From Psilocybe cubensis (lineage: Eukaryota), in assembly GCA_017499595.2 (NCBI GenBank), contig CM039000.1, positions 4,030,001-4,094,000 on the forward strand: a stretch of DNA of 64,000 nucleotides, given 5' to 3'. The notes below the pieces were generated by a model. The model worked only from the letters and a program-made list of their open reading frames with translations, was not told the origin of the DNA and searched no databases. Of this stretch, positions 15,275 to 37,535 are shown piece by piece. A program made the position numbers and the translations under genes. The first letter of the stretch is position 1. Each line of letters opens with the position of its first letter.

Positions 15275-15490
15275 GCATCAGTAAAAGTACACCCTCTAGC
15301 GCTTGCGGGACAATCACTTGTGCTAGGACTTTCTCCCGCTTTTTCAACTTCTGCTTTCACTTTTGCGTCTTTTGCCTTTGTTTTTGGAAGCTTACTGCTT
15401 CTGTTGCATCTTTTTATACACTTTCACAAGTTCATTCACTTTAGTTAATTTCTCGTTGATAAAGCATCAAAAAAGGTCTTTTGGGGGTAT

Positions 15491-16155
15491 CTAAAAAGCT
15501 ATCTCATGTGCATGATGATCTACATACTTGTTAACATAGAAAGAACGAAATGAATCAAGAGATTTTGAAAAATCAAACTTGGTGTCGAGAGGAATAAAAT
15601 CCTTCCCAGCATCCCCAATCAAGTGTGCACCTCGATAAATAGAATCAAGATGAACCACGCTCATCCGCCGTCGTTGGCCATATCGCTGGTCGCGTCTCTC
15701 TAGGTCCGGTTTGACTTTCCACATTCTAGTAGTTGGACATGGCTTGTCTCCAATGTGTGAAAACCATTGGACCAACGCACACGGATACAAAGTACCTGCA
15801 TGTTTAAAAGAGAAGAAAAGAAATACACGTGCCACATGTAAACCAGCGAATCCATCCTTGTCAGAGTCCGAATTACCAATGAACACGCAGTCACGCCGTG
15901 CAGGACCTTTGTGCCACGACGGGGTTGAGCGAATCATTTCATAATAAAGACCATTGGATCCAGAAAGATCACTGGGTGCGAAGTAGATGGCGCGAGCAGA
16001 AGTAAATAGTCGAAAAGTGCAACCGGCGAGACTGGGAAGGGAATCATTGGTTTGGATATGTAACCGAAGGTCGGCATTGGCAGCAACAAGTTGGTCGTAA
16101 AGGAAGCGTTGAGTGAGCTCCGCCAGGCGTGGTTGTCTGACATGGAATGCGAATG
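15491..16155 (-). CDS. C-terminal part of the outer Plavaka transposase
   Basis: FAFHVRQPRL...SARAIYFAPSDLSGSNGLYYEMIRSTPSW...RRDCVF...YPCALVQWF...FYVNKYVDHHAHEIAF is the typical Plavaka C-terminal region. It joins in frame to ...VRGVPLAIEA at ~34693-34722. Confidence 0.88.
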
Positions 16156-16374
16156 CATCAGCAATACCGGGGCCAAGTAGGTAATGATCCGTAGTGATAC
16201 GTAATTCTGTAGTGCCCATAGTAACGGTCCCATTTGGGTAACACACACTGATGTACCTGTAGCTTGGTACCAACGTGACATGGTACTCTGTAGTGATCTG
16301 TATTGTAACGCGAGTGCTGTGTAGCGGCGTGTAGCATGCTTACCATGGTCCATACCCCTCTGTATACAACTGAC

Positions 16375-16455
16375 ATACAAATTGTAGCATACTACCACAG
16401 ATTTGTAGCATGCTACCACAGATTTGTAGCATGCTACCACAGATTTGTAGCACAT
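16375..16455. repeat. Subterminal 21-bp tandem repeat (AGATTTGTAGCATGCTACCAC, ~3.5 copies)
   Basis: Visible directly. Its core TGTAGCAT recurs inverted (ATGCTACA) near the right end at ~34562 and ~34630. Confidence 0.85.
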
Positions 16456-16679
16456 CATAACACACTGCAAATAGGTACAAAGGCATATATAGTATCCACT
16501 TTCATTTGTATAGTGTTGTGTGGCTATTCCTGCAAGTGCCAATATCACACTGAAAACCGAACCATTTTTGACTAAAATGGGCAATTTTAAAAATAGATAA
16601 TCTATGTTTGGATCGGACCAAACATGTTTCTATTAGTAGATGCATAACTATTAATACGTGACGATCTAAATATGGTATC

Positions 16680-17129
16680 TGTCAGGGCAACACTATAATC
16701 AGTGTGACAAGGCCACCAACAAAGATTAAGCAAGAGAGAGAGAGAGAGAGCAGAGGGAGAGTAAGAGAGCAAAGAGAGAATAAGAGAGTGAGAGAGATTC
16801 AATGGTTCTAAGAGATCACACCAATGATAGTGGATATCCTAAGAGATTGAAGCTGAAGCTACAGCTACCTACAAGTCCAGTATTTATACTTTACAGCTAT
16901 TCTAGAATATTCCCTACATTACATCATAAAGGAAGGTTAAAGAATAAAAGTGACATCATATAGAAAAAGGATGAGTAAGACTAGGAATCATATAGAATTT
17001 ACTAGAAAGAAGTGGAGCAAGAAGGCTGTGATGAAAGAAATAAACTATCTAATCAGATAATTGATAAGATAATGAAAGGATAAGATAATTCTGTGAAGAT
17101 AAAGAGGGGAAACTGGAGAAACCCTGACA
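16680..17129. mobile_element. Solo LTR (450 bp) of an LTR retrotransposon
   Basis: Begins TGTCAGGG and ends CCCTGACA, flanked by the 5-bp duplication GTATC (16675-16679 and 17130-17134). AT/purine-rich interior with a GA microsatellite and no coding region. Confidence 0.88.
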
Positions 17130-17175
17130 GTATCTTCTAATCCACACCCGGCAGCTGCCCCGCTCATTCACCCAA

Positions 17176-19917
17176 CTACCCTTCTGGACCGTAATCTAGT
17201 TCCTCCTGTGGGATAGAATGGAGAGTCATCCTATAAGGGTTGGGGGGGTTCTTCGTAGGCCTCATAATAGCACTGATTATGGAGATCTAAATGATGCAAA
17301 GAAAGAAATGAATAAAAAAAGATACACACCATCCTTCCTCAGCCACTTCCCTACATAAGCAAGCCAAGCGAGGACCTTGGTTCAAGGTATCCTTCTCTGC
17401 CTCTGCTGCAACCAACATGCAGGCATCATACCTCAGGGAGTACTCCTCTCCCTTGAATTCAATACCCGAACACGGACCACCTCTTGCAGGGTCAATCCCA
17501 TCCCTCCACTCCTCAAGACAGTTGTGGATCTACAGCAAAATGCTTGTTAGCAAGGCAGTGCCAATAGCAGGAGAGAAATCAGAACTACACAACTGGCCAC
17601 AAGCGCAAATGCTTTGTGGGGAAGCGATGTCTTGAAGAAATCCGTCTTTGTCTCCAGACCTTTGATGGGGACTGCAACCCCTTTTGTAGGATGGTAGAAG
17701 AAGTCCAGACAGATCTTCTTCACAAAAGGATGTCCAAATGGGACATCGTGATACTGGAAACAAATCAATGAGTGGTAAGCCAGGTAAAATGGACGGCGAA
17801 CTCACTCGGGTTTTGGCAACACTCCGGTGGTATTTACCATTGAGTAGCCAATATGCTACCCTGTCCTTGATGTATTCGATCTCCCCCATCTGATTTTCAA
17901 ACATATTGGGGTTCGCGGCGATGACCTCCGACGGGACTTCGAGGCCATACGCATTTTTGACCAGGGGTCTGATCATCGTCTTCAGTCTTCCCCGGAAGGT
18001 TGACGCGTAGACAAATGCCTAATGAGAACAGACACGTTAGTACGATATCCTTAAAAGAACACGCTAAAAATATACCGTTACGGCGGTATTCCTGTCTAGG
18101 AGCGTTTTTTTCTCTGCAAAGTTATGTAAACCAATTAACTAAAATCACAGAAGACAGAACTTACTATCAGGCAACACTTTATCCGTGTTCATTCTTTCAA
18201 ACACGGTTACTGCCATCTTCACACATCCATCGGCGACTAATAAGTGATTTTCCCGAGTGGGAAAGGGGACCTCCTCTACTACATACAGGCACATCAGTTT
18301 GCGTGCAATTTTGAGCACATCTTTCCAGTAACCAGTAAAGGATGCAACTGAATGCTTGGATACTTCCCTAGCAGAAGAAGTACTGGACTTCTTATGAGCG
18401 ATGTATGCCTCACCAAGCACCTCATCATCGTCAGATGCTTCGTTGTTCTCCCTTGTCAAACCTTGGGATACAGCTCCTTGCGAAACAGCCACCTTGCGCA
18501 ATGCCTCAGGGCGAGGTGGCTTGTTCGCCCGATTACGACGACGGTGTTCTTGAAGAACATCCTCTACTTCCACAACCTATATCAATAATACATTAGCTAG
18601 ACATTAAATACAGCAGAGAAATGATTACATGGGGGGAAGGCTGGCGGAGCAATGCCCTTGCTCTCCTCTCCTCTTCATCATCGGAAACTTCATCAACCAC
18701 TGTCAAACATAGGTGGTAAGCAAACACGACATAAAGGTGGAGTTAAACCAACGCTGGGCAGCAGGCTCTTCATCATCTTGACCCGCGTTGTCGTAACCTT
18801 CATCACCGTCGACATATTGGAGAGCTTCTTCATCCCCAATATTCTCTTCATCAATTCCTTGCATGCATTCGTCCCCTGATGCTTCCTCAGATCGCCTTTC
18901 ACCGTCACTATCCCCCTCTTCCTCCTCCTCATCTTCCTCCTGCTCTATGCCTTCGTAATCTTGTTGCTCCTCCTCGTCTTGATGGCTGATGCTAGCCTCT
19001 TGGTGGGCGTTATAGGCTGCTGGATGCACTGGCTGTTGTACGGGGGCATGTTGTGTTACAGGATGCACTGGTTGTTGTACGGGGGCATTGTAGTATTGGA
19101 CAGAATTCTCTGCCGCAGGGGCAGCGTAACGCTGAACAGGATTTGCTGCGTGTTGTACAGGGCGCGGGACAGGATGTGCTGCATGTTGTACGGGGCGCGG
19201 GACAGGATGTGCTGGCTGTTGTACCGGAGCAGCGGGGCGCTGGATGGGGGCAGTGGGTCTTTGGACAGCATGATCAAGCTCTGAGTGCTCCTGATTTCTC
19301 TGAGCTGCACGTTGGATCTGGACAGGAGGGGGGGCACCCTGAGATTGTCGTGGGCTTGGTTGGACTTGTTGGACATCCCAAGGAGCAACTGAAGGCGTTG
19401 GCCTTGGTTGCATTTGAATAGGGGGACCTACATGCGACACAACGGTAACCTAGACGTGCTTGGAAGATAGCAAATTTAAGATTAGAACAGTAGACTCACC
19501 CCATTGCGAGGTTTCTTCAAGGGAGGCGCCATCTCATTTTCAGGCATGGCGCTAGTATCCACATTGGCGGCCCTTGACTTCCTCTTCCCAGCCTTCTCGA
19601 AGTCAATAAAAATGATGTTAGATGTTTTCTCCTACCGAGCATTTACTCCACCAAGACCACGGGTGCTTCGGATAGGACGGCCATTGTGGTCTTTTTAATA
19701 AGGAGTTCAGTGAATCTCAACAAAGAAAATGCTAGTACAGACCTGCTTCAGGAGCCTGAGGTGGCTCGTTTTCTGCCACGGAGCTCGGACCCTGTTCAAC
19801 CTCTTGTCCTAGATGGATAAAACATTAAGTATGCGGATGTAATGAGGATATATAGATGATACCTTCAACCGTGGCATTGACAACCGCCTTTTTCTTTTTG
19901 GATCCTTTAGGTGGCAT
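17176..19917 (-). CDS. DUF6532-like accessory protein of the inner element (multi-exon, possibly frameshifted near the 3' end)
   Basis: Starts MPPKGSKKKK, then a Q/P-repeat and acidic region, then STFRGRLK...VKNAYGL...PFGHPFVKKICLDFF...ALVASC|IHNCLEEWRDG...FKGEEY. The C-terminal pattern resembles DUF6532. Confidence 0.65.
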
Positions 19918-20711
19918 ATTGGGCTGGTTTGACGGTTGTAATGCAGAAATAGAGACAAGGGGTGGTGAATTATGTCAAGCTACGATCCGGAGGTATGCGA
20001 AATTAGCCTCTTTTCAAAATTTAAGGCGACGGACATCAGTCAAAAATATATCGTGCCATATAGAAATTACAGGTACTGAAACAGTACCCCTATCTACTAC
20101 AATATATCACATATACATTATAGTCAGATTCCATGTCCTACTTAGAGTTAAGTAAAGTTACATCTCAGAGGGGAAAAGACTGCACCTATCATGATCGCGG
20201 ATTATCCTGAGAGTGCATTAGAATAGGTATTCCCCGACTAATGAGGGATACCCGTAGACGGGCGATTTCGAGCTGGGTTTCAAACAGAAGATCTTCATTG
20301 GATTTATATGCTCGCATAATGTTGTCCATATAACAACGTAGCTCTGCCTGAACTTCTAGACACCTCTGTTCAGTGAGTTGAAATTGGTCAAGAGCCTTTT
20401 TAACGGCCTCTATGCCTTGATTCTAGAGGAAGGTGGATTAAAACATGAAAATAGACCTAAAACGAAGAACTCTGCCTCTTCGGGTATGCTAGGGAGGCGG
20501 CGACTTTGAGGTTGCGAAGCGTTGTTGCTATTGGAATGGTTCATGATAAAGATAGGCAACAATTTGGTGTGGTGGTGGTGGCTTAAGTTCAAGACAATCA
20601 ACACATTACGAACCATTAGCACTGTTGATTGCCGAAATACACTTAAATAGAATGACATAAAACCCGTATATGTCTACAAGTCCGTGTTCGAGATACAAGT
20701 AATGCTGCACC

Positions 20712-23071
20712 CTACATATTTACAACTTTGACACCACGGGACGGGGGGAAGATTTGAATCAAAGATGTTGTCGGAAAAGTTGGGAATGTATCACCGCGTT
20801 TCATACGAGTAACAGGATATTTATGTACAACGCAAATATCCTTGTCTATTGATCGTATCCTGAATATAATCCCCATTGAATCGCCCTCAAGCGGTGTAAC
20901 AAAGTCGTCCTTTTTTACAGGATGAATTGGAAACAACACTGATTTCGGTAATGTCAGTGTACGTCCCAGTAATGCTAGGTGGGCAGTATCGTCGGTAAGG
21001 CTGAGAAGTTCCATCGCCACTTGATGGTCGCCCTTGGATTTGTCTACGACTTTTAATCGTAATCCTTTCAGCTTATCGTATTTCGTATCTAGCCAGTGAG
21101 CGACGGTTGAGGGTAGTTCTGCAATTTCCACCGCCGAGTGTACAGGTATTGCTGAATACGGATTCCATGCAGGAGACAGAAAACTTGCTACTGTGGACGG
21201 CATTGGAGTTGCTCCACCAGAAGGCCCGGGGTCTTGAGCGGAATTTATATGTTCTCGGTTGCTTGAAACAATGTCAGTAAGCACCTGACAGTCAACGAAT
21301 CAAGTGAAACCACATACTGTATAATTAAATGTGATATTTTAATACGTTCCACCCTCTGGTTACGAGCTTCCAGCTCAACGTCTGCAAAGCCGTCGGGGGT
21401 AGTGCTTTTAACGATGCCATAGTACCCCTTGAATGTATTATTCCCGACAACGATGACACTCAAACCTATATAGACGTCGTTGTGGTCTCTTTCTCCAAGC
21501 TTTGACGAATGACGCTTTCGCGGGCGAAGAGTAGCATGGGCAGGGGGGACGTAGAATATGACTGTGTGGATGGGCACAATGACCTGAAAAATGTGTTGAA
21601 CACTACTGAGACAAAGAGAATGACAGTTCACCTACTTCGCGTTCGTGCTCTGGGGCGATAATACAAACAGATCTTCCATCAAAGTCTGACACCCATCCAT
21701 GGAGATCTTTGTGATCCCCTTCAACGACTTCAACACTATCGCCTATCTGGAAAGCTGCACGTAGATCGTGTAGTGCAACTGCTTGTGTTATACCTTGGGA
21801 GGGGATGTGCACTTCCACCTCAGCGTCAGAAACACTCTTGACCGTTCCAAAAAGACCTAAGTATTCTCCACCAATAATTTTGACTCAATCATATTGTTTC
21901 AGTCGAGTCATGGAGATGGCTTTCGAGGCTTGCGCTAAGGTCTCCGTCGTTACAAATGGACACTCGCGAAATTGCTCCAACTCGGACGATGTTGGGAGGA
22001 CATTGGAAAGATATTTGAGATCGATGGCGTCGAAATCCGTGATAATAAATCCATCCTGGAATATCCTGTCGAGGTGCGATTTCTTGATGTTGTCCGGAGG
22101 TCTGGGGATAAGAACAACACTTTTCCGACCCTGGAATGTGAACACAAGGCCGGTAGCATTTGCGTAGGTCGTCCAAGCCTTACGCTTTCCAGCAACCTTG
22201 ACCCACAATTGGTCTTCAGGGCGTGAGGGTGGGGGATGAGATAGGATCTCCATACATCTCTCCGAGGATAGCCTAACTAAATGTGTCGGATTAAGCTCTC
22301 TAACGAGGCAGGCTAACGTATGCGCATGTTGCATTGATGGCGCCTCGACGTAGATTCTCCCAGGAATTGAGGATTGAGCGAAGACAGACCGGGCAAGGAT
22401 GATGGGAAATGTAGGGTTCGTTGACATCTGCATAATTTTGAAAGCGACGGCCTCTTCGCGTCCAACCTATCACTCATAAGGTGATCAATAAATGCTGACT
22501 GAAGACTTATATTATTTTTGCGTACCTTGCAACCTATTTCATACATGATATCAGTCGCGGAAGGCATATAATTATTATCACCAAGTCCTCCTGGTTGGGG
22601 ATTGCCATATTTCTGTATAAGTTCTCGTGAACTAGATGGCTCTATATCATTGTCAGGACAAATTTTCATGCGTGAAGGCAGAAGCATGGGCAACAAATCG
22701 CTCCATTCATCAGCGTTATCTGTATTTTGCATGGCATGATATAGCCGAGAGTGTGCAACACGTTCCTCATCCTCAGAGTATTCATCGTTATCATTCACTG
22801 TATGTCAGAACCCATTAGCATCAGTACATATTGAGCAGAATATATGTAAATTATTGGAACATACGTAGTTGGCCCCCTTCATAATCAAGCTCTTCCGAAC
22901 TTTCATCATCATCGGAAACCGCTGCTTCAATGTCTATGAAGGGATTAATGTCCTGATTTTTTGAGATCATAATTAAATTTCCCTGAAGTCAGTGATTAGA
23001 TGGAGGGTTGGATTAGTACACACTGTGTGGTTGCCTAGGCTGTCAAGTCGTCTGCGTTTATAACTAGACAT
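20712..23071 (-). pseudogene. Spt5-like (NGN + multiple KOW) transcription-elongation-factor homologue with a premature stop
   Basis: NPFIDIEAAVSDDDE; NGN-like EIGCK|VGREE...SVFAQSSIPGRIYVEAP; KOW-like VKIIGGEYLGLFGTV, FQIGDSVEVVEGDHKDLHGWV and IGLSVIVVGNNTFKGYYGIVK...VELEA; a GGATP..PAW remnant. In-frame TGA at 21885-21887. Confidence 0.8.
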
Positions 23072-23643
23072 TGTGGGTCTTAAAGACTGTTAATCGATGT
23101 TCATCTCACTTAATTTATCATCTTAACTTGTGATAATTTATTTTTAGATCTGATGTAAGGGGGCGTTTTTTTAACCAACTCGTGACTTCAGGACGGGAAA
23201 CCTACCCTAAAGAATCGCTCCGGAAATAGCGTGTTTCCAACTTGATTGTTTTTCTTTCCGTTCATCATAGCGTAGTACCCCTCCCCATAGATTTAACATA
23301 CATTCTAATAAAATAGACATAGACAATACTCTAGACACTCTATAATAGTTTTCGTTCAGTTAAAATTCATCTAGTTGAAAATTTGAGACACCAGAAAAAA
23401 ACACACAAAAAAAAGTAAGTACCCAAAGAAATAGAATGCAGGGTGAGACGTTGAAGTTTTGTAGTGCAAGCCCAGAAGATTTCCCCCGTTGCCCGACTCC
23501 AAGCTGAAGAAATTCTGGCGTTTCCCTTCGAAACGCAGGTCGTTCGTCAGACTCTGGAAAACATGTTGCCAGAGTTGCACCCACTCCGCGTAGGTCTTAA
23601 TTGGATTGCCATTTATGGTACTAATATCAAGTTTCTGTAGAGG

Positions 23644-26600
23644 ATGGTGGATTTCCTCCGACGATATGAGGACTTCACCTTTTTGAATTACGATGTTTCA
23701 TCATCGAGCATGCGAGCGGCCATCAAGTATAGGCAAAGCTTGGCTGCCCTTCAGAACAGCATCGTAGAGACACCCTGCGTAACCTCGGCTACATGGGAGC
23801 AGGCGGGTAGCTTATTTGCAGCATACCGTCTACTCGATCTCGTAGCGTTGTGGCCAGCAGCCTTTGGACCATCATTGCCGGTGACCGTGCCCCTGAATGA
23901 AATACAGGCCAGCACAGGAACTAAGGAAATATTTTCACGGTTCAAGGTATGCGATCATGAAGTCACTCAATGTTAATTCTTAATTTTCAAACAATTATTG
24001 TAGCTTGTAGATGACTTGAAGGACTGGCCGGCAATGCTCTGCTCTGCCAGGAAGCGCATCCTCAGAGCCGACTCTAAGTCGCACAGAAACATCAACACCC
24101 CTTCTATCAGTGACACGCCGTCATCCGCTTTCACCCAGGGCGGGCCCTCGGAATCAACGCTATTACTCTGTCTGGCGCGTAACCACTTCAAGGGTGTTGT
24201 GGGGAAAATAATCGGGAATGTGTACTGCGCCTCGCTACACTACCAAATCTTGTCAGGAATGCGCGGTATGAAGGACGATGAACACATTCTACCAGACATT
24301 CCAACGGACATGGCTACTCTTGCAAATCTCTAGTAAGTTTTCTTTCCTCTATTCATTGATACAATCTGCTCAACATACCCTAGTGCAAGCGGCCATCCTG
24401 ATGCTGCGTTGTTCCTCTCAGAGGTCACGCCATCTCATTTAAAAATTCCTCTGCATGTCGCCCTTTTCATATCCCCATCCTTCTTTTTGTGAATAAATCT
24501 TGGTATTCTAAGAAATGTGACCGGGAGCAGCTGCTTAAATTAGGTGTATCCACATCCTCCCAGTTTAACTTGGATTAACGCACTCCTTTAGGCCTCAAAA
24601 GCGCTCGGTAATTGTCGCCCCCGTGTTCTGCGTGAAGTGGAGATGGAAATTTGGAAAATCATTGCAGCGCAAAATTGCGACATCCAGTCAGCCTTATATA
24701 AACTTGTTATCTCAGACTGCTGGATGGAATGCGAGCGGGTAATTGCACAAGATCCCGCGTTTCACTTTTTCATATGTGTGTTCTACGTACTGTAACAAAA
24801 TAACAATTTAAACTAATAATTGGCCAGCGTCAACGAGCAGCGCCGAGGTTACAGCAAATTCTAACCTAGCAAGGCGCAGCACTGAACCACACGGTAAGTT
24901 ATAAGCAAAGTCTGCGTCAATTACATGATTTAAATCCGTTTAAAACAGCTCAACTTCAGACCGTTTCCCATCATGGTGAAAAAACCACCTGTGAAGGGTC
25001 CGACGCAGACGCGGAGGGTGACGATGATCACGAAGTGGACACGACGGAAATGGTCAGCATGGGTCAACGGGAGAACGGGGACAATACGGTCCCTACCTCA
25101 AATATACAGCCTCCGGAAGACACGTCTTCAGTGGCTGGCAAGGATGTCAGCATGGGTCAACAGGAGAACGGGGACAATACGGTCCCTACCTCAGATATAC
25201 AGCCTCCGGAAGACACATCTTCGGTGGCTGGCAAGGATGTGCCCACGGACGAGCAACCTGGTTTGCCGCGGAGTGATGATATTGGATCTGGTCTACTTCA
25301 GACTGAGAATACTGGGCCCTCAACTGCAGGGGATTGTGAGATGAACGTCGATCCGGAGCAAGCTGATGTCGACCATCAAATGGAGGATGGTCCACATACC
25401 AATGGTCCAGAAAATTTGGGAGACGGCGGGGCTGGACAAGGAGCTGAAGGGTCTTCTGACGAGGCAAATCGTATGTCGGAAGTTCACGAGGGCGAAAAGC
25501 AGGGGCAAGACGGAGAACGACCCGACGAGGAGAACCGAATGTCAGAAGATGGTGAGGAGGAAAGGCCAGACGACAGTTCGTCGGACAATGAGACCGAGAA
25601 GCAGGGGCAAGGGGATGTTCCACCAGTCCAGGAGGACAGAATGTCGGTCGATGGAGAGGGGGTAGGCCCAGAGCAAAACAATGATTCCTCAGACATGGAG
25701 AGGAATACATTGGAAGACAGCCAAGGCGAAAAGGAGGGGGAGAACGCACCTCCTGCTCCTCTTATTTTGAGGATTCCTCCTGTTTCCCAGATAAACAGGA
25801 GCAAAAACACCACGGCTGACTCCTCTCAGAAAGGGAAAGGGAAGGGCCGGCAGGGCCTTTCCAAGCGGCCTCCCAAACGCAAGCCGACGCAGGCTACCGA
25901 CACATTTGATTCGGACGACGACCTGTGTATTGATGTCGATCTGTACGACAGCAACACCACCCTTGATGTCGTCAGCACTCCGGAGAAGGTGTATGGCACC
26001 AAAGTTTGGTCCACCTACAACGGTCGTGGCCAACTTAAAAGTTTCTGCGTTGTTGCCCATGTAAGTCATTCTCGATATTGATTTTTTCGTCATTTATTTA
26101 TTCTCCAAACAAGAGTCAAGCCGACGTGGATCGTGTTGAAAGGGTTCTGGAATTGGTCAAGAGTGACTACGTCGATGGAGTTCCATTGCACATAGCACAT
26201 CCCGAAGAATCATGTTTTGCGGTATTCGACCGCAGCACCACGAAATCCATGTATCTGATGGAGTCTTTCTCTGAAAGGAACGTCGTCCTTATGTCTCCTT
26301 CTCAAGAGGAGTCTATTTCAACTTGCTCCGACGAGTTCTACAGCCAGGTACGTCGCCATATGGGTGATATGACGAGCACCAGGTCAATCCAAGGTGTGTT
26401 TCCTCTTCGATGTTTTGATTTTTCTTTCTGCGTCTCATGCTAATGGCCGTAACAGATATGTCGACCATGTCGTCTAACCCCATCGAGAGGATTAAGCGTG
26501 GGTCCCTCTCTCAGGTCATGGAAGCAGCGAGGATGAAAGGCAAAAGAGGAAAGATCCTCAATGCCCTCGACATCCCTTTACCTCATGCAGGCGCTCACTC

Positions 26601-28124
26601 TTTTGACTTGAGTACTGAGGCGGCTGCTCTTCGGGCTACATCTGGTAGCTGGAAGTATAGTACCCCCGTCCCATTTGGTGATATGTCGTGGGGACTCGTA
26701 GCTACAGAGGGGGCATTTTTAGATATCCATATCGATGCCAATGGTTTCTGTTCCTTCATCCAACCTCTTCATGGACTGAAGCTGTGGATTATCATGTATC
26801 CCAGACGGTTGGATGTTGACCTTTCTTCTGACCGCCGTGTATTTCTGGGAGACAAGCTGGATTACGGGAAACGCACCACCAAGACTGGATTTACGAGGCG
26901 ATTGTTCTCGATAACCAGTCAGAACTGTATGTGATTTTTGAATGTCCTACCCATTTGATTATATTGACGCTACTTTGAAAAACAGCTTCATGAGACCGAA
27001 TACTCTACATATGGCGTATTCTATCTCCTCAGTGGTTTGCCGTGGCGGACATTTTTACTCCTCCACTTCCTTCGAAGAAACCCTGACAGGAATCATTCAC
27101 TGTTTTACCGCTGGATACAGGGCAACGAATACGAATCATTCAACGTCCCGATTTTTCCTGCAGCAAACCATACATTGGTTCTACAAGGTTTTGGTTGAAG
27201 GTGACAGCGACCCAGAAGGTATGAGGTTTTTTACCGTTTCCTACAAGATATCTGATTCTTTTCTTCTATTTTCTCTCAGATTTTTATGAAATGTACCATG
27301 TCCCATTCTACAGTACGCAGTCCGGATACTCGAGCTTGATAGCTCTGTGCGTGTGCATGATCTTGGCAAATGCGCTCGACTACGAGACCTATCGAAATCC
27401 CGATCAGATGTTCTCCACCAAGACTTCGGCACAGTTAGACGCATGGATGCGGTGGGATACCAACAGCCTGAGCGACGAAGAGCGCAAGGCGTGCATTTTT
27501 GCCCGTGGCGAAGCCTTGGCTATTCTAGAGTGGCTATGTCATCGCACGAAGTCCATCCACTACATGATTGAGACGGACAAAAACAAGGATGCACAAAATA
27601 TCATGGCGACAGAAAAGTTCCATGAAATGATACTTTGCCGCTATGCCCGTATGATTCTAGCCTACGACGCAGAAGCCAAACATAACAACATTGGTGGTGC
27701 CCCTTGCTGTACCGACACCAGTTTGCTTTTTGTCCAGCTTCAGGGCGTCTGCAGCGGAGAATTGAACAAGGTTATATGTCGCAGTATCGACCAGCTTCCT
27801 CGTTCCTCGGTCCCAAAGATGCTCAATTTACCCGTAATCACTCTCATTGACTGTGATGCCTGTGCGGATTCCTCAACGCAATTGAGTAGGTGGACCAGTG
27901 TCTGCCTTTGGATATTGACTAACCACGTCACAAACTAGGAACTCCCAAGGAGATTCTGGAACTTGGTACGAGTGTGAGGGATAAACTGTATCTGGATGGC
28001 ATGAAAGTCAAGCTGGAGAGCACAAATCCGAGTACGTGTGTTCGATTATGCCTTTACGTCGCAAATGCTTATCTCTTCATCAGAATCAGAGTCTGTTCCG
28101 CCTTCTAAACGACGGCGACTTTGA
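23644..28124 (+). CDS. Large multi-exon JmjC-like 2OG/Fe(II) dioxygenase with an acidic linker; apparent frameshifts; 5' end uncertain
   Basis: WGLVATEGAFLDIHIDANGFCSFIQPLHGLKLW...EAIVL...FMRPNTLHMAY...GGHFY gives HxD...K...H cupin ligands. One-base frameshifts appear at ~24475 and ~26868. Ends PPSKRRRL. Confidence 0.7.
25053..25238 (+). repeat. 93-bp (31-aa) tandem duplication inside the JmjC-like gene
   Basis: Two copies start at 25053 and 25146 and differ at 4 positions. Confidence 0.9.
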
Positions 28125-28595
28125 TATTGTACAACACATTGACACACATCTTGATTTACATACATGCCATGTTTTATTTAGTACTGAAAGGCGTGTATGT
28201 CCTGTAACATAATGACGATTGTTTTATTATCTGTAGTTGTGTGCTGCTCGTATCGCCAGACCAATACGCAAATTCTTGCTGGGATGAAAGCTTCTGGCTT
28301 TACTGTAACTGCTGTGCGTTTGAATTTATCATCAAGGTCAATGAAATCAACTAACTTACGTTTGTTGATGCTTCTTCCACCCACTTCAAAAAATGTGTTA
28401 GTGTCTTTGTTCTGGTGCGTATATACAGTAAAGCTCTTCCGAAGCCCTCCTTGGATTGTACTACGGATTGGTTGAATACTAACCCATGTGAAATTTGTTT
28501 GTATTAACGGAGACATAATCAGATAACATTTATAGACCCACTGCACGTTACTGAACATTACATTATCAGTTTTTTTTTCGTATCTTCGCTTTTGT

Positions 28596-31500
28596 ATGAG
28601 TCGTTGTTTCAACATGGGAAAGGGCAAGGGCAAGAGAACTCAGGAAATCTGTGTGCGTTGTCCTCGATGCAACAAGCCATTCGCTAAGCATGCAGATGTC
28701 CAAAATCACATCAATCAACCAAAATCGGCATGTCGTTTTCAATATGAGAACGTTATGCATTTTCAGTCCAATCGTTCAAGCTCTACATCTAGATCAGCAA
28801 CCCCCGTATCTCGAGACCCTTCTCCCGAAATTGGTAATTTTATGGAAGTGGACTATATCGACAATTTTCTTGGCGCGTCATCAGAGATGGAAGATGACCC
28901 ACCCCCCAAGGCATCAAAATACAACTATCCGTACGTGAAGGAGGATTATAACGGGGCTGGAAGAGCATTTGGAACAGGCCTTACATTCATGGATCAGCTC
29001 AAACAGGATCAATTCGAACCCCAGCGGGCGGAAAATTTGTACTATCCTTTTGCCTCGAAAGATGAATGGGAGCTCTCCCTGTTCCTACTTCGCTCTGACA
29101 TGAGCGTAGGAATGCTGAATGATTTTTTGAAACTTGAACTGGTAATTGAGCGTACATTCCCATCATTATTTATTTCAGCTGAGTCGATCCCGTATAGATA
29201 AAAAAACTCAACTTGTCCTACAAGTCGGCAAAAGATCTATGCAACCGGGCAGAGATCCTTCCCTCTGGTCCGCAGTGGAAGAGTCAAACGATCATACCAG
29301 AAATACCAAGCAAAAATCAGCTAACGCTTTTTTACCGCGATGGATTGGAATGTATCAAGGCGCTTCTCATCAGTCCCTTGCTCCAAGATAGCATGCACTT
29401 TAGCCCATTCAAGCTCTTCGACAAGTGCAACGAGATGATGCGGGTATACACTGAGTGGTTTAGCGGTGACATTGCGCATTTTATGCAGGTTAGTAGCAAT
29501 GCCTTTGTCCAAGTTTGACGACAGTATAACAAGGTTCCCAAGGACCAGCTCCCAAAAGGAGCAACACTTGTACCTCCTATTATTTCCACGGATAAAACCA
29601 ACATTTCCAACATGACCGGAGGCCGTGTCGCCTACCCTGGCCTTATCAGCATTGCCAACATAATGATGAACGTTAGAAACAAATCGTCAAATCATTTATT
29701 CCTTCTTTTTGTTCTTCTTCCCATACCAAAGTTTCTTCATCGCTCCAAAGCTGTGAATGGGATGATGGCAGCACGGCTATATCACCAGTGCATGGACATT
29801 GCTCTAGAATCGGTCAAACAAACTGCGAGGGTGGGAACCACCATGGCAGATGCATTGGGGAATAATCGTTTCTGCTTTACACCGCTTGCTGCCCTTATCG
29901 TTGATACTCCAGAATCTGCTCTGGCGGCTTGCGTCGCAGGATCCACATCCTCTGTGACGTTGGCACAATACGAGACGTTTGGGGATTCCTTTCGCCACCC
30001 TTCCCGAACTGCAGATCATACAATCAACACCATCATGGCCATCAACAATGTTAAGCCCCCTAATCATCTCGAACCATATCTAAAAGAAAGCAAAAAGCAC
30101 CGTCTCAATGGGGTTCACCTACCGTTTTGGAGAGATTGGCCCTTGTCTGATCCTTCTGCATTCCTTACGCCTGAACCCCTTCATCACTGGCACAAGATGT
30201 TCTGGGATCATGATGCAAAATGGTGCATTGCTGCAGTCGGAGGTTCCGAATTGGATTTTCGATTTTCAATTTTACAGCACCGCACTGGTTTCCGACACTT
30301 CAAGGAAGGGATTTCTTCCTTGAAACAAGTGACCGGTAGGGAACATCGGGACGTTCAGCGATACATTGTTGCTCTCATTGCAGACACAGTCAGTACACCC
30401 TTTATCTTAGCCATCCGGTCTCTGATGGACTTTCGGTATCTCGCACAATCTCAAACAATCTCCGAGGCAATGTGTCTCAGAATTGAGCAGGCACTGCAAG
30501 ATTTCCATGCCAATAAACAAGCCATCCTTGACGCGGGAGCACGTCGAGGTAAAAAAAACAACCCAATCGATAATTTCTATATTCCAAAACTCGAGTTTTT
30601 GCAAAGTGTAGTACACGCAATTAGACTAAATGGATGTGCAATCCAATGGTCTGCAGACACGACAGAGCATGCACATATCGAGGTGGTCAAAGCCCCTTCC
30701 AGTTCCAGCAATAATCAAAGATACGAGCCTCAAGTTTGTCGATACCTTGATCGTCGTGACAAATTGCGCAATTTCGATTTGTTTACAGCTATACGAGAAA
30801 TGAGGATCGATTTTCGGGCTATACACTCTGCAACAATTACGGATGAGGAGGAGCAGGAGGAGGGGGATGAGGGGGAGGAAAACGGCGAGGTTGTGATGGA
30901 CACAACGTCAGAACTTCTTTCAACAATCATGCCGATGACAACCTTTCAATCAGCAAAGTCCAATCGCATTGTGGATTACTTCTACAAAGCTAGTCTCTAT
31001 GAGCGTGGCGTATTGGAAGGCCCAGTCCCCTACAGAACATTTTCTTGCAGCAAAAACGTTGTTGCCCATTTATCTAGGGATGCTAGTTCCAAAAGATTGC
31101 ATATCGACGAGGTTGCGAGCATTTTTAAAATTCCCGACCTACGACCAGCAATTGCCGATTATGTGTCACTCATCAATAAGGAATCAAATCCGAGACAGAC
31201 CAATTCTCGAGGTTATCACATCAAGGGGATAACTGGCAGGCGTGTTTCTCCTCCCGGTTGTCTGTTGCCGTATTCAAAACTTGAGGTATGGCATAAGGTC
31301 CGTATACAGTCGACTGCGTACCAATACCCTCATGAGATCCTGGAGGCAGTCACACTTAATGCATATCCGCCATCTAACAAACATCCTTTTGGATACTTTG
31401 ATTCAGCAATCATAAACGTGGATGAATCTGAGGAGTGGCCTCGCAGCGGGCTTCAAGGTAGTACTTCTTTGTGACTTTTTTCCGAACCCCGTTGACCAGC

Positions 31501-31900
31501 CAATATTGTAGGCCATTCTGTCGTCGACATTCGTATTATTTTTCGCATTGTCGGAGAGACACCCAGTACTGTGTCTCCCGATATTACTAGAAGATTTCTC
31601 GCATACGTCCAACGTTTTGAGGTTTTAAATCAGCCACAGTCTCTAGGTTCTGCGATCCGTGGACCTTACCCAGAGCCAATAACCGGCATGTATAAATTAA
31701 AACGAAGTCAACGTACAGATAACACCATTATGGGTGGAATTTTACCATTGAATCAAATACGCTCCCTGGTTGATCTGGTCCCTCAGATGGGCGAGAAGGC
31801 AAGGCGAAGCCTTACTACACATAACAGTCATTCCACTAGCACCGAGTTCCGATTAAACAAATATTTTGACAAAGAACTCTATTTGGCCCTGTCATCATAA
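28596..31900 (+). CDS. Plavaka transposase of the inner element (multi-exon, apparently intact)
   Basis: N-terminal C2H2 finger (CPRC..F..HADVQNH), YYPFASKDEWEL, LFYRD, ISTDKT, DTPE, PEPLHHWHK, GFRHFKEGIS, QVTGREH, PKLE, DTTEHAHI and a terminal LNKYFDKELY. Confidence 0.92.
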
Positions 31901-32039
31901 CATATCCACCTCAGGAAACCCACAAAGTTTTCAATCCCTAATGCACATTGCCACTCAAATTATCACCCAACACGCCGGCCTCGTTGTACACAAAGACGAC
32001 TCGGATCAATATCAACAGCCGCTTCTCACCAGTCCCGCT

Positions 32040-32770
32040 TTCTCACACTGTATCATCGTCACCTACTGCATATCCCTCCATCCATCTCATCTCTGCAGAA
32101 TCAAGTCGTTCTCGCTCATCTTCCGCTCACCACCGCCCAAACTCCAAAGGATTCTTCCCAGAGTGCCTCTTCCTCTAAACAAAAATTCGCCTCCAGTCTT
32201 GTCGGTCCGTCCTGTCCTCAATTAGCGCCCATCTTGCCGGAGATACTCACTTTATTTTTTCAATTCCATTGCAGATTAAGCTGTCAGCACCTTATCTGAG
32301 ATCTGGCGCCCTCAAGACATTCCCTCCCTATTTCTACCCACTGAAGTCCTTTGAGGATTGAGGACATCTGGAAACATACTGCAGACAGCACTATGTTATC
32401 TCGAAGCCATTCGTCCCAAGGTTCCCAAAATTTGCAAGAGGAAAGCATTGGCCTCTCTCCCACAATCCATACCTGCCATGCCTCTGTATCATTACCTACT
32501 GAATACCCCTCCATCCGTCTCATTTCTGCAGAATCAAGTCGTTCTCACTCATCTATTCCACCCACCACTGCGCAAATTCCAAAGGATTCTTCCCAGAGCG
32601 CCTCTTCTTCTAAACAAAAATTTTTTTCAAGGCTTGCCGGTCCGTCCTGTCCTCAATTAGCGCCCACCTTGCCGGAGATACTCACTTTATTTTTTAAATT
32701 CCATTGCAGATCAAGCTGTCAGCACCTTGTCCGAGATCTGGCACCCTCAGGATATTCCTTCCGTGTTCCT
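32040..32770 (+). repeat. Partial tandem duplication of the 5' part of the cyclin gene
   Basis: ~32060-32330 matches ~32495-32770, including the intron GTCCGTCCTG...TTGCAG. ~32345-32460 matches ~32991-33110. Confidence 0.8.
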
Positions 32771-33584
32771 ACCCCCCGCCAAAGTAGGGGGTAGCTCTTT
32801 TCCTCCTACTCATTCCCGTCCAACTTCCAAGCAGATCTCTTCCGATTTGCAATCCATAGCGTCTCATACACATCCAATACATCCACACAACAGTCATCCC
32901 TCCGTATCCGGCCATAACCCTTCCCCGACCCTCTTGCTTGCCTCGGGCACCAAATCCGATCAGATATTACCCCTCAAGTCTTTTGTTTATAAAGTCCTTC
33001 GCCACTCAAGGACATCTAAAAACGTACTGCAGATAGCACTATGTTATCTAGAATCCATTCGTCCCAAGGTCCCACAGATTTTGCAAGAGGAAAACATCGG
33101 CATTTGCTCTTATGCTCAGCCCAAAAGCAGTATTCAGAAAGCTACCCCAGAAGAGCTGGCGATGGATGCTGAGCTTACTGCTCTTGAGAACTCCGGCAAG
33201 ATCAACATCATCAATAATTTCATTGACAATTCTATGCAAACATTCCGTGTTGCCGATTCTGGTTCACAAGATCTGGCTGAATCGTGCATCTATCCACAAG
33301 ACTCTCTGTCCAGCGTAGATGTGCAGGTCTCAACGGCTCCTCTTTCCACCACCCTTTCTTTGCCATCTCCCCTCCTGTGTCCCCGTAGAGCCTTTCTGGC
33401 ATCCCTCATCCTGGCCTCCAAATTTTCACAAGAAAAGTGTTATTCTAACCGTGCTTGGGCAAGGTTATCTGGTCTCCCACCTCGTGAAATTGGTCGCTGC
33501 GAACGTGCCCTCGCACAAGCCTTGCAATGGCGACTCTGGGTCGGCAAATGCGCCTTTGGTGAGAGTGCTGCAACTGCCACATAG
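32478..33584 (+). CDS. Pho85-type (Pcl/Clg1-like) cyclin carried by the inner element; start region looks damaged
   Basis: DQAVSTLSEIWHPQDIP...LKSFVYKVLRHSRTSKNVLQIALCYL...LLCPRRAFLASLILASKFSQEKCYSNRAWARLSGLPPREIGRCERAL..L.WRL is a cyclin box. The nearest ATG (~32478) is out of frame with exon 1. Confidence 0.8.
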
Positions 33585-33828
33585 TCTCAATAAGTTTCAA
33601 CTTTCACGACCGCGCCATGTAGTACGCATTCTCAATAATCACTCTTTTGCTTGCCACCACTACGCGCGCTCCTCCCGCATTCAGTTAGATAGGCATCTTC
33701 TTAGACTAGCCTAGAAAAATCTATAGAACTTTGTTTTACGTATACAGAACCCCTGAAGAATTTTTATACCCGCGAAGTTTGTTTTCAGCTTGAATTCCAA
33801 CTACGACAAAGTGAGCGTATCACACACC

Positions 33829-34379
33829 ATGCAAATCATCAGCTATGAGGAAATTTTACAAATCGAAGCAGAAGTATTGGCCCCTACTTTCCCAGATCTA
33901 ATACATCCTACAACTTTCCCAGAGGCCGCCTCACTTGCTTCTCAAAGACAGCAATACGACTTGGAAATGGCTCAGTTAGTTGAGCAGACCCAAAAAATGG
34001 TCCTTTTGACCGAGAACAGGCTGATACTGGCCATCCTGGCCCTTTTCAACGAAATTAACTGGACCACCCTGGACCCAAGGTTACTATCGTTGGCTAAAGC
34101 CAAGATTACCGAGGGTGACCAGTGGCTCAAAGCACGAGCCGTGAGTTTTCTGTTTCTTCAAGTTTCAAGTTGATACTCTTGCTTAAGATAACTAGGAGGA
34201 GACACTTCGGGATGCAGACTCAGGCAGCCCCGAGCACATATTGACCCAAGGGATGTCCATTATAGCCAACGGCCAGATTCATATTCGAACGGTAGAGGTG
34301 AGTCACAGTGATAACTACTTTGTTTCTACACTTTCTTAGTAATGGGCAGGATCTCATACGAGAATGTCAGGATCATTAA
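33829..34379 (+). CDS. Small helical hypothetical protein of the inner element
   Basis: ORF 33790..34173 followed by GTGAGT donors at 34141 and ~34298 and short downstream exons. Confidence 0.5.
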
Positions 34380-34692
34380 TAGGGTCAAGATACTACATTG
34401 TAAATAGACACTTAATTGCCTTTAAAAATGTACATTTTATTGCTTGATATGATTGAAGAGCTTTACTGAGACCAATCACATTGGACATCAAACTCTCCTA
34501 AGTCTGGAATCGTACATAGAGATAGCTAGGAAAATCCAAAGCTCGCAGTAGTAATGTTGGAATGCTACAGAGCTCAACGGAGCATCCCGCCGATGACACA
34601 TGACGCTATACTGTCTACAGCCCACTTTGATGCTACATCCGGTTGGCAGGACAATACGTTGAGTTACCTCCGAAAATCCGGATTTACTGATG

Positions 34693-37423
34693 TGCTTCAA
34701 TTGCCAGTGGAACACCACGTACTAAGGAAAAATTAATTGAATATATGCGCTAAAAAGGTTTAGGATAACATACCATGAGATTTTGCAAGTGTAATCTCAG
34801 ATTGCGATTCTGGCTCAAAAACCTCGCCACACTCTTCAGTTGACGCTCTCCTTGGTGGCTCGGGAGGTGTATCTTTCAATATAGTTACGGGAATGTGGGG
34901 CCCCGAGATACCATTCAGCATATTGTGTTCGGTAAAAAAGACCCTTGCCGCCAAAAGTTTCTCGACACGTTGATTTGTTACAAGCATTTGACCAAGTGCC
35001 TTATAGCGACTGGACCGCCGATAAGGTTTTTTGACAGCTTTGATGTGTTTGTTCTCTGTGATTGACGAGCAAAGACCGTTTGGTGCTCCAAAAAGTCGGA
35101 TTAACATAGGGTAATGAGCAAGGGAATGCTGCCGTGGGAGTGAAAATCCTTCAGGTCGCACATTCAGGTCTCGAAAAATTTCACGATGGCAATGAAAGCG
35201 TGATAAAGCGACCTCTATTTGATCCAGTGTATCGTCGTCGATGGCATTACGTCGCACCAGGTAACAGAAGTCAAGAAACGCGGCTACAGCCTGAACCATT
35301 TGGTCTGGAACATGGCCTGCAATAGCGGGCAAATACACCTGATAGATTCGGCTGAGATATCATAACTTTGGTTGGGGTTTTAATCACAAACCTTCATTAA
35401 ACCCTTTGAATCATCGCCAGTCCACTGTTTGAATCCGCGTCCTTGATGAAAGTGTTGAAGACCAGGAAAAGAAGGCGCAAGTACAATGCTACCAGGAAAA
35501 TTGATGTCAGCATTGAATCAGTGGCTCTAGGACCAGCCGGAAATATATACCGTCGATCAATATCAGCTAAAATCTTCTTTGCAATTGGCGGATCATGATG
35601 TTGATTGATGTACTGTGTGACCCAGTCCACCAAATGGTCTTTGAAGGTTCCTTTGATAATTTGATGAAGTAGATCGGGGGCGAGAAGTTCGTGTATATCA
35701 GCTCGGGGGAATGATGAAGTAAATGGCTAACAACAGGTCGTGGAGTTAGCAACACAATTTCCGAAACAGTATGCTGAAAATTTTACTCACAAATAAGTCG
35801 CCAACTATGCCATAATCATCCCACAATTCTATCAATGTACATCCGTCTACTAGGGCTTCTGTATGCACCTGTGATCGCCGAGGACTAGGTGCATCGAGGT
35901 TATCAGGATGAGATGTACATCTGCAATTTAAGATCATTAGCCACAAGCGGTAATTGTAATTTTGAATTAAAACCTGCCTTGGACACCATCCTTGAACAAT
36001 GCATGCAAGCAATGCTTGCTCAGGATAATCTGCAATGTAAGGGCCAATTCCATATATAATACGACGGTAATGGCCATCTCCACACATGGTTACACGTGGC
36101 GTAGACATGTAAGGCCGAAGCGATGATAAAATGTGTTCGAGAGACGTATGGAACAGTTGCCGGCGAAACTTGCGGAAGTCGGCTCTATCGCTGTATTCTT
36201 GTGATGCTTTAAAAGAGACCATGTAAGCCAACAAGTAAAATTAGTAACCGAGAGGAGCTTACTTTTGGGAATGGCCAGAAATCCGACCAGCGAGACTGCA
36301 TTTTTGTGAGCTCGTCGCATCTTGTTATGGATATTTCCTAATGACATGTAGAGAGGATAAAAATCATTTTGTCCCGTAGCTACAGACACTGTGGTCTTGT
36401 CGCTTCCGATGATGACCGGGCAGAACATGGATCCATGACATTTGATGTCTTGGGCGATTTTGTTCTGTACAAAAAACAATGATAAGAAAATAAGCACAAC
36501 AAAGAATAACAAGTCACGCACTGCCTGCAGCCATGCCCATTGTCCCGACATAAGATTCCGGTATCTGCGTTTACCATTCCAATAATATCGCTTTGGGGCA
36601 TAATCAATGTTTCCCACATAAGTTGGGTTGCCAATTTGTTGCTCTAGAACGTCAAGTGGATTGCGAAACCAAACTTCATATTTTTGTGTCATCCACTCGG
36701 GAATTGGACCATCTTTTGGTAGCTTGCCGTTGTAGGTTACAGAAAATGAGGTCCATGGAATGTTGCCTTGTTTGATGCTATCAATACAAGCATACATATC
36801 AGAGTGATTTGCAAACGGTGGGTCTTGATCAGGATAATTAGCACCTAAAATTTGTGACAGGCGATCTATCCTGCCTGCTGACATCTCCTCCTCGACAAAA
36901 AGAAATTCAGCCATTTCAAATTCTGTCCGAGTTGCAAAGGGTGTAAAGTCCTCCTTGTTGTGAGGCGCAGCAGGTTGTGGCTTTGTATTTGGGGGAAGAT
37001 AGTGACCCGCAGAATCACACGGTCTTCCTAGACATACATTAGCTATAATTTGTGAAAAAAAGAGCCTCGAAAACACCAACCATCAATTGTCGGGTGGGTA
37101 TCTATATGTGAAGTAGGCACTGGATTTGGACCACTCGGATTTGATTTTGGCGATCCAGATGGTGTTTGGCGAGGTGAGCGACGAGGCGAAAAGTTGTTAG
37201 ACCACGGCTGTGGACTTGGAGAGGGAGAACGAGAGGATGGTAATTGCGGCAAGAAAGACTGTGCATGCAGAAGTGCAGACTGCACGTCCAGAGCAGCAGG
37301 AGTAACATGTTTTCTGTCATAATGTTGTTGTATGCCCCATGATGTTGTCGAGGTTTTGAGACATCCACTGTATGAGCAATGAAACGTAGCTGCCCGGAAT
37401 TTCTTGCGAGTTCTTGAAGACAT
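34693..37423 (-). CDS. Plavaka transposase of the outer element, N-terminal and catalytic part, interrupted at 34692
   Basis: C2H2-like start (CSYSGC...QQHYDRKH), PFATRTEFEMAE, VWFRNP, GSDKTTVSVATGQ, CGDGHYRR..YGIGPYIADYPEQ, PDLLHQIIKG.FKDHL, SLPRQHSL.HY and APNGLCSSITENKHIKAVK. Confidence 0.92.
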
Positions 37424-37535
37424 GGAGGTTTTGAGTCAGTCGTGCAAAAAACTCAGCATCAGAATCAGTGTTACAGCGACACGGCGCTGCATGTCACACT
37501 GCATTTGATTTCTTACCGTCAAAGTACAACATACT

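Follow-up and report, generated by a model that had tools for sequence, protein, structure and literature searches.

Why would a DNA transposon of a mushroom carry its own copy of Spt5? The question is raised by a locus of Psilocybe cubensis (assembly GCA_017499595.2, contig CM039000.1, positions 4,030,001 to 4,094,000), a stretch of 64,000 nucleotides that we call the window and to which all coordinates refer. On its minus strand, at 23071-20712, lies an Spt5-like gene, here termed Spt5L, which is interrupted by one stop codon and is very probably the cargo of a PlavakaB-type transposon at 16156..34692. Spt5 is normally a single essential host gene, with specialised paralogs in plants (KTF1), in ciliates (Spt5m) and on bacterial mobile DNA; to our knowledge, Spt5/NusG is the only transcription factor common to all life. 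The best explanation as a whole, to which we give an even chance, is that the window holds a dead copy of a cargo gene of PlavakaB, a member of the CACTA supergroup, and that intact Spt5L would serve as an anti-silencing or processivity factor. The new aspect is an Spt5 paralog carried by a DNA transposon.

An earlier reading of the letters alone (the original prediction) had marked 20712..23071 as one Spt5-like gene. The ATG and stop codon of Spt5L exactly fill this interval, and the follow-up adds the minus strand. The spliced model comprises 684 codons in six exons (23071-23024, 22952-22865, 22797-22526, 22466-21636, 21583-21318 and 21261-20712) with five introns of 52-71 nt, all GT..AG, and is backed by tblastn of relatives and by the public protein models P0002 and P0153. 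Public annotation of P. cubensis cuts the gene at its TGA into P0002 (329 amino acids, aa) and P0152 (204 aa). P0153 represents a sister copy on another contig of the same assembly; its public model omits exon 5, and thereby the KOW5-like domain, and splices to an acceptor within the last intron. Since this exon is conserved in relatives, the omission is probably an annotation artefact.

Judged by its sequence, Spt5L is almost certainly a paralog of Spt5. The protein runs from an acidic N-terminus through NGN, KOW1, KOW2, KOW3 and KOW5-like domains to one unit resembling the C-terminal repeats (CTR) of Spt5, 'SPAWNP', and a KOW6-7-like tandem. Pfam, run on raw reading-frame pieces of the window, placed Spt5-NGN (PF03439) at 22466-21885 with 24.7 bits (cut-off 22.4), and on the Spt5L frames found KOW2_Spt5 (50.9 bits, cut-off 28.9; E 1.4e-13), KOW5_SPT5 (34.1 and 27.7 bits, cut-off 27; E 1.9e-6) and KOW (33.2 bits, cut-off 22.3), with no match in the first 160 or last 195 residues. 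The N-terminus has 23 D+E among its first 80 residues and contains the motif FIDIEAAV; Pfam Spt5_N gave no match in the window pieces or in the paralogs scanned. A profile built from 23 full-length Spt5L relatives aligns to yeast Spt5 from an FLDIEAEV motif onward. This profile matched yeast Spt5 (8jch_W) at 6.9e-76, with profile positions 6-439 corresponding to Spt5 167-630, a span that takes in the acidic motif, NGN, KOW1 with its linker, KOW2 and KOW3, and a later barrel aligns to yeast Spt5 803-849, which is KOW5.

Structural comparison gave the same picture. The AlphaFold2 (AF2) model of P0008, the nearest full-length relative (703 aa; mean pLDDT confidence score 73.8), contains an NGN and four barrels, followed by a disordered stretch and by a C-terminal tandem modelled with confidence. 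In a Foldseek search of this model against the PDB the first 29 matches were all Spt5 chains, with domain matches to 4ytl (KOW2-3, TMt 0.70), 4ytk (KOW1-linker, TMt 0.67) and 5ohq (KOW6-7, TMt 0.60), and to 2exu (Spt4-Spt5NGN) with a root-mean-square deviation (rmsd) of 2.6 over 93 columns. The AF2 model of the window's own exon-6 product reached pLDDT 89-97 (10-residue block means) at model residues 61-170, and its best PDB match was again an Spt5 chain, 5ohq, KOW6-KOW7 of human DSIF (E 7.7e-6, TMt 0.74, rmsd 3.7, 115 columns). The last 110 residues are thus predicted to be a KOW6-7-like tandem, which Pfam missed. On the minus strand the NGN occupies 22242..22549 (aa 129-211; PF03439 above cut-off and profile alignment to the yeast Spt5 NGN), KOW1 with a linker insertion 21963..22226 (aa 217-304; profile alignment to yeast Spt5 and the 4ytk match of P0008), KOW2 and KOW3 21551..21893 (aa 328-424; Pfam KOW2_Spt5 and the 4ytl match of P0008), the KOW5-like domain 21261..21463 (aa 454-502, exon 5; Pfam KOW5_SPT5 and the profile against yeast Spt5 803-849) and the KOW6-KOW7-like tandem barrel 20745..21062 (aa 569-674; AF2 model and PDB structure match).

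The acidic N-terminus, the NGN-like segment and the several KOW-like segments of the original prediction, and with them its call of an Spt5 paralog, have therefore been recovered. Its 'nearly full domain order' stands for NGN, KOW1-3, KOW5-like and KOW6-7-like domains and fails for the KOWx-KOW4 module. In neither the P0008 model nor the window protein is KOW3 separated from the KOW5-like barrel by a further domain, from which we conclude that KOWx-KOW4 is absent; among the representatives scanned, Pfam KOWx_SPT5 matches were confined to canonical proteins. The predicted absence of a CTR repeat tract also held, in that Pfam CTD gave no match at E<=1 on the C-terminal piece and the window protein has one PAW against five in the Pfam CTD region of canonical P0106. 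The short GGATP/PAW remnant was likewise found: in the protein sequence the unit SPAWNP (aa 531, 'GGATP ... SPAW') sits in a disordered linker at 21159..21176 on the minus strand, and 18 of 23 aligned paralogs retain the W of its SPAW. In fission yeast the CTR repeat reads TPAWNSGSK, and by likeness to it SPAWNP looks like a single surviving CTR repeat. Spt5L thus resembles canonical Spt5 (the large subunit of DSIF; yeast Spt5, human SUPT5H) in having the FxDxEAxV motif, NGN, KOW1 with linker, KOW2, KOW3, KOW5 and KOW6-7-like parts in the same order. Unlike canonical Spt5, it lacks KOWx-KOW4, has one CTR-like unit instead of a repeat array, measures 684 aa against roughly 970-1040 aa (P0109, P0141, P0106), and is multi-copy, transposon-carried and placed in a separate fast-evolving clade.

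Are the residues that contact Spt4 retained? The Spt4-contact residues of the NGN, reportedly described by Guo et al. in 2008, we take to be S324 and E338 of yeast Spt5. At the positions aligned to these, S is found in 19/23 and E in 18/23 paralogs, and the window protein has both, as canonical Spt5 does. As NGN-KOW1 has been retained together with the Ser and Glu that contact Spt4, Spt5L should sit at the place of Spt5 on the clamp of RNA polymerase II (Pol II). That Spt5L binds Pol II seems to us reasonably likely; the intact protein would do so via NGN-KOW1 at the clamp, probably together with host Spt4.

We then ask what carries the gene. The inner element at 16156..34692 spans 18,537 bp, including a 455-bp later insertion, and has the termini CATCAGCAATACCGG.. 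and ..CCGGATTTACTGATG (CATCA..TGATG) with a 2-bp target site duplication (TSD), TG, on both sides; CATCAGCAATACCGG starts at 16156 and the inverted CATCAGTAAATCCGG ends at 34692. In the main text of a 2025 survey of transposon cargo, PlavakaB is described as having termini 5'-CATCA..TGATG-3' and a TSD of 2-3 bp (PMC12730594), a description that fits the termini and TSD length both of this element and of the outer element in which it is nested. A first search for CACTA-type termini had yielded weak candidates and was dropped after the PlavakaB termini gave a clean result. Inside the element, on the plus strand at 28536..31471, lies a transposase gene with a zinc-finger-like N-terminus, a Plavaka domain (Pfam PF18759; 2.7e-16 at 29198-29515 and 5.9e-64 at 29519-31471) and DUF6830 (5.9e-45). 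An apparent nonsense codon in it, at 29516-29518, was rejected as it falls inside a likely 45-nt GT..AG intron.

Read depth delimits the same unit. In raw reads of another isolate (X15), depth was ~30 in the flank bin and ~54 in the first 880 bp of the outer element, and 431-604 from 16156 through 34499, the end of the compared stretch (bins 17168-34499), which puts the inner element at ~14-20 times flank depth. At 16156, 305 X15 reads with unlike flanks (agreement 0.39) come to an end. In the X1 contigs, whose word depth is a poorer measure of copy number than the X15 raw reads, depth was 19 in the flank versus 143-225 inside (ratio 7.5-12), and record 7 (depth 182) continues for 193 letters past 34499, that is to the end at 34692 if colinear with the window. 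By raw reads there are roughly 14-20 copies of the inner element. The listed X1 contigs (1.1-3.9 kb) show 1-12 differences each from the window, about 0.1-0.4%, and since the copies are near-identical the element family must have moved recently. Taken together, the PlavakaB termini, the TSDs, the depth step at 16156 and the Plavaka transposase inside bear out the claim that the gene is transposon-borne.

The window copy of Spt5L is itself broken. The in-frame TGA that had been predicted at 21885..21887 (minus strand) is codon 330, in the first strand of KOW2, within 'QYD*VKIIGG' of the Spt5L frame; the family consensus is CGA (Arg). P0153, 98% identical over 568 aligned columns, reads 'KRYDRVKIIGG', with Arg at codon 330. 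At 21887, 476 of 511 X15 reads have the other base, C on the coding strand (CGA), and a high-depth X1 contig also carries it; the remaining 35 reads are about the yield of one copy among roughly 18. With Arg in the sister copy and CGA in 476/511 reads, the stop is a private CpG-to-TpG change, CGA (Arg) to TGA at a CpG of the coding strand. On this comparison of copies the window Spt5L is inactivated by R330*, as had been suspected. Between the window and the high-depth X1 contig, which covers 20815-23149, there are nine substitutions and no gaps. No stop is added by any of them, so the other copies have an open consensus in this stretch. In the coding sequence the differences are R15H, R92C, S223L, R327Q and R330*, together with two synonymous changes (4 missense, 1 nonsense).

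The same type of change recurs along the element. The comparison with X15 listed 40 differing sites, 39 of them inside the element, and at 33 of these 39 at least 85% of reads disagree with the window. C>T or G>A changes on the window side make up 29 of these 33 private differences, and 22 of the 33 fall at CpG, which is the signature expected of deamination of 5-methylcytosine in a methylated repeat. We have little doubt that the nonsense change at codon 330 arose by CpG deamination.

An apparently methylated element carrying an Spt5 paralog also invites the reverse interpretation, in which Spt5L, like plant SPT5L/KTF1 (Pol V) or ciliate Spt5m, supports non-coding transcription for small-RNA or methylation pathways and so restrains or marks the element. 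The CpG-transition signature fits such a role, the 23-paralog profile matches KTF1 in the Pol V complex (8hyj_W, 5.8e-35), and according to PMC5416832 and PMC8934623 non-coding transcription directed at transposons is where all known eukaryotic Spt5 paralogs act. However, the KTF1 match is much weaker than that to Pol II Spt5, the AGO-hook is absent (1 GW/WG in 684 aa) and a factor encoded by an element is more likely to serve it. We therefore regard a silencing-linked paralog as very unlikely. Similarities remain: KTF1 (RDM3, Pol V) is a lineage-specific Spt5 paralog without a CTR that is tied to transposon biology, and Spt5m of Paramecium, which is meiosis-specific, is a second Spt5 for a special class of transposon-related transcription (PMC5416832 and PMC8934623). 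Yet KTF1 is encoded by the host and has an extended AGO-hook region of WG/GW motifs, whereas Spt5L has one GW and is transposon-encoded; Spt5m is a developmentally regulated host gene with its own Spt4m partner and is not known to be transposon-carried.

How widespread is Spt5L? An exhaustive phmmer search with the NGN-KOW3 frame, the stop read as X, returned 340 representatives at E<=1e-3 and 83 at <=1e-10. A Pfam scan covered 149 of the 150 listed phmmer matches and, by pieces, the window's own protein. Among the matches listed, eight representatives have the full canonical Spt5 set and the rest NGN and/or KOW only, with four fused to other domains: P0007 (Tet_JBP, 29.3 bits, cut-off 34.9), P0022 and P0030 (RTC4-like, just below cut-off) and P0099 (WD40). 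A word-based protein search produced no longer relatives of the NGN piece, and the 23-paralog profile, when used in a protein search, returned mostly canonical Spt5. A quick maximum-likelihood tree of 39 rows, consisting of listed matches of 560-1300 aa and the spliced window protein and leaving out the fusions P0030 and P0099, separated eight canonical rows from 31 non-canonical paralog rows by a branch with an SH-aLRT (approximate likelihood ratio test) value of 99. One of the canonical rows, P0109, is known to be from a plant, Papaver. All of the paralogs whose source was looked up (30/30) come from Agaricales, in the genera Psilocybe, Panaeolus, Agrocybe, Cyclocybe, Gymnopilus, Galerina, Hypsizygus, Tricholomella, Arthromyces, Tricholoma, Lyophyllum, Sphagnurus, Candolleomyces and Leucocoprinus/Leucoagaricus. 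The family is, as far as the tree and the sampled genera indicate, an old, diversified and fast-evolving Agaricales clade apart from canonical Spt5. The notion of a 'diverged, captured copy' in the original prediction is thus right as regards a diverged paralog in a transposon, and has to be corrected in that an old clade, split off with SH-aLRT 99, is involved and not a recent copy of host Spt5.

Species often hold several diverged copies, such as 4 in Agrocybe chaxingu and 3 in Panaeolus cyanescens, frequently on short contigs. This bears on the possibility that the Agaricales clade consists mainly of host genes, for instance stage-specific elongation factors, of which the Psilocybe lineage alone was taken up by Plavaka. 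Several members do lie on Mb-scale contigs. Set against this are the several diverged copies per species, many of them on 3-25-kb contigs typical of repeats, and the P0007 fusion with a TET/JBP-like domain, which is recognised as transposon cargo in Agaricales in the main text of PMC12730594. We find a host gene family of this kind quite unlikely. In P0007 (Agrocybe chaxingu, 2041 aa) one gene model joins Spt5L to the TET/JBP-like oxygenase domain, a sub-threshold match; on this model, Spt5L and TET/JBP genes would be same-strand neighbours in that species, which would pair Spt5L with a transposon cargo known to act against methylation. The rest of the window has nothing that matches the C-terminal parts of the fused models P0007, P0022 and P0030; their neighbours differ from the cargo of the inner element.

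Returning to Spt5L as a working gene of the transposon, several observations weigh against such a role. The transposon linkage is established for the Psilocybe element only, and among the 149 other representatives scanned none is fused to a transposase domain. The paralog branches are long, that is, the family evolves fast, and in the 23 paralogs the domains are only slightly better conserved than the linkers (pairwise identity 0.25-0.30 versus 0.16-0.18). In P0153, the residue corresponding to E338 of yeast Spt5 is K, which indicates that single copies decay freely. One candidate RNA run had no reads on the window stretch. Moreover, loss of KOWx-KOW4 and of the CTR could equally give a dominant-negative or silencing-linked factor.

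Much of this is also what one would expect if Spt5L were a passenger, a host Spt5-like gene captured by the transposon that brings it no benefit and decays neutrally, comparable to the transduplicated gene fragments in plant Pack-MULEs or CACTA elements. Under this explanation the window stop with its 4 missense changes and the K at the key Glu of P0153 are simply free decay, and the fast evolution of the family, the silent RNA run and the restriction of the established linkage to Psilocybe fall into place. However, Spt5L is no fragment: it has its entire length, five introns and all its domains, and over 20815-23149 the high-depth contig representing the other copies shows neither a gap nor an additional stop. 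Moreover, a shared architecture of 680-740 aa, with all domains retained (occupancy 0.77-1.0 in the 23 paralogs), persists at 25-30% identity in at least 14 genera, which needs long-term purifying selection. We consider a mere passenger rather unlikely.

What, then, would intact Spt5L do for the element? A pro-transcription or anti-silencing role is our leading answer, though one that we hold to be less likely than not; the original prediction, too, had suggested that the protein might help transcription through silenced chromatin. On this proposal Spt5L would take the single Spt5 site on polymerases transcribing the element. KOWx-KOW4 is part of the RNA clamp in DSIF, and because Spt5L lacks both this module and the CTR repeat platform, those polymerases would be uncoupled from host CTR-based control. 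Spt5L might in this way favour processive, silencing-resistant transcription of the own genes of a long (18-kb), probably CpG-methylated element, and it would then play the part in a eukaryote that specialised NusG paralogs play on the mobile DNA of bacteria. Those paralogs, RfaH, ActX, UpxY and LoaP, are copies of the universal NGN-KOW factor, encoded beside or on foreign or mobile DNA, that displace the housekeeping factor on the polymerases transcribing that DNA. The likeness is meant as a working analogy and not as close descent; unlike Spt5L, the NusG paralogs are two-domain proteins recruited by a DNA signal, and we know of no such signal for Spt5L.

The known counter-silencing toolkit of transposons includes TET/JBP, VANC and TnpA. 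Should the proposal be true, a recently active, multi-copy eukaryotic DNA transposon with a full-length Spt5 paralog would add a further strategy, that of seizing the elongating polymerase. Spt5L would also offer a 'minimal Spt5' made by nature, in which the roles of KOWx-KOW4, here missing, and of the CTR, here down to one unit, could be probed. A parallel is found in other cargo: TET/JBP dioxygenases in Kyakuja and Plavaka elements of Agaricomycetes have been proposed, in the main text of PMC12730594, to counter methylation-based silencing. Like them, Spt5L is an extra non-transposase gene in the same transposon groups and fungi, while being a different protein altogether. The main text of this survey does not contain the terms Spt5, KOW, NGN or elongation. 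In the literature covered by a full-text search, which did not extend to the founding paper on these transposons (Iyer et al. 2014), no study was found that connects Spt5 with Plavaka, KDZ or Agaricomycete transposons. A search for Kyakuja and KOW gave unrelated papers, one of which was checked by term and has no KOW, Spt5 or Plavaka in its main text. Public databases already list the Spt5L family, with automatically assigned names such as 'Chromatin elongation factor SPT5', and it appears to be unstudied.

The inner element carries further genes. Just downstream of Spt5L and on the same strand, at 17290..19449, lies a DUF6532-containing gene with an acidic Q/P-rich N-terminal part (Pfam E 7.4e-5, 23.2 bits, just below the 24-bit cut-off). 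A candidate PHO80-type cyclin-like open reading frame (ORF) lies on the plus strand at 32661..33581; it matches Pfam Cyclin_N (E 0.0032) and Cyclin PF08613 (E 0.0051) below their cut-offs, scored 0.93 to PF08613 clusters in an Atlas feature search, and had no match in a PDB sequence search. Its 5' part is duplicated just upstream, at 32048-32452 (repeats D2, D8, D10). A cyclin beside an Spt5 paralog with one CTR-like site is suggestive. A joint interpretation would be that mushroom Plavaka elements encode their own Pol II elongation factor, that Spt5L deafens polymerases to the pausing, termination and silencing cues of the host, and that the product of the cyclin-like gene and a host cyclin-dependent kinase act as a switch on the SPAW site; taken as one, this is unlikely. 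If true, the element would be the first eukaryotic mobile element known with a dedicated NusG/Spt5 copy, a counterpart of the RfaH-/ActX-type paralogs. Between Spt5L and the transposase, a run of plus-strand ORFs without family match (24870-28472) includes a 403-aa acidic ORF with a 93-nt tandem duplication (25053-25238); these may be upstream transposase exons or another cargo gene. For the ORF at 27225-27935 an Atlas search gave no usable match.

Copies of the inner element also differ in structure. A 455-bp insertion at 16675..17129, identified by depth and by skipping reads, is of very high copy number and private to a minority of inner-element copies: depth in bin 16501-17167 is ~2490 against ~30 in the flank (about 80x), and 424 X15 reads and an X1 contig skip 16675-17129, so that most copies are without it. 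Reads link its right end to 21988, 30440, 32489 and 33544, which suggests that the same small element has inserted elsewhere in other copies, including in Spt5L. It looks like an active element resembling a miniature inverted-repeat transposable element. Upstream of Spt5L, an opposite-strand joint of 23149 and 23273, seen in 57 reads and in high-depth X1 and X10 contigs, sets the window apart from most copies. The difference sits 80-200 bp upstream of the Spt5L start codon, and a loose end at 23149 is seen in 259 reads (agreement 0.96). No clear inverted repeat was found that would explain the joint; 23149-23273 may reflect a short stretch that was inverted or replaced within the divergent promoter region.

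The outer PlavakaB element, at 15276..41188, measures 25,913 bp in all, of which 7,376 bp are left once the nested inner element is subtracted. Its terminal inverted repeat CATCAGTAAAAGTACACCC lies at 15276-15294 and recurs inverted at 41188-41170 with 2 mismatches; in a control, two matches were found in 0 of 100 shuffles. The TSD is GG (2 bp; 15274-15275 and 41189-41190). A paralogous empty site at 55967-56323 runs across the junction with a single GG, and an X10 contig joins 15275 directly to 41191, the exact empty site of the element. A separate Plavaka transposase, recognised by Pfam, belongs to the outer element and is encoded on the minus strand at 37082-35400. Its target is itself repeated, as 15091-15275 plus 41211-41364 are 82-92% identical to 55967-56323, 15 kb downstream.

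This pair of elements bears on one more function for Spt5L, namely that of a tether which, docked on transcribing Pol II, would steer target choice by bringing the transposase or the excised element to chromatin that is transcribed or open. In its favour, Spt5L and the transposase are divergently transcribed from one 1.8-kb spacer of the same element, and the Pol II-binding module is the best-kept part common to Spt5L and Spt5. However, we found no domain or motif that ties Spt5L to the transposase, the outer Plavaka element transposed without an Spt5-like gene, and the two insertions here fall in a repeat and in another transposon. We judge tethering highly improbable and retain the proposal that intact Spt5L would act on transcription of the element itself.

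Lastly, the window as a whole is a nest of DNA transposons. At 42797-43048, inside a 354-aa minus-strand ORF without family match, lies a 12-nt tandem array of at least 14 units (TTTGGCGAAGGG-like). Outside the Plavaka elements, at 45500-47750 on the minus strand, a KDZ (Kyakuja-Dileera-Zisupton) transposase was identified (6.7e-38), together with a CxC2 cysteine cluster (5.1e-16).

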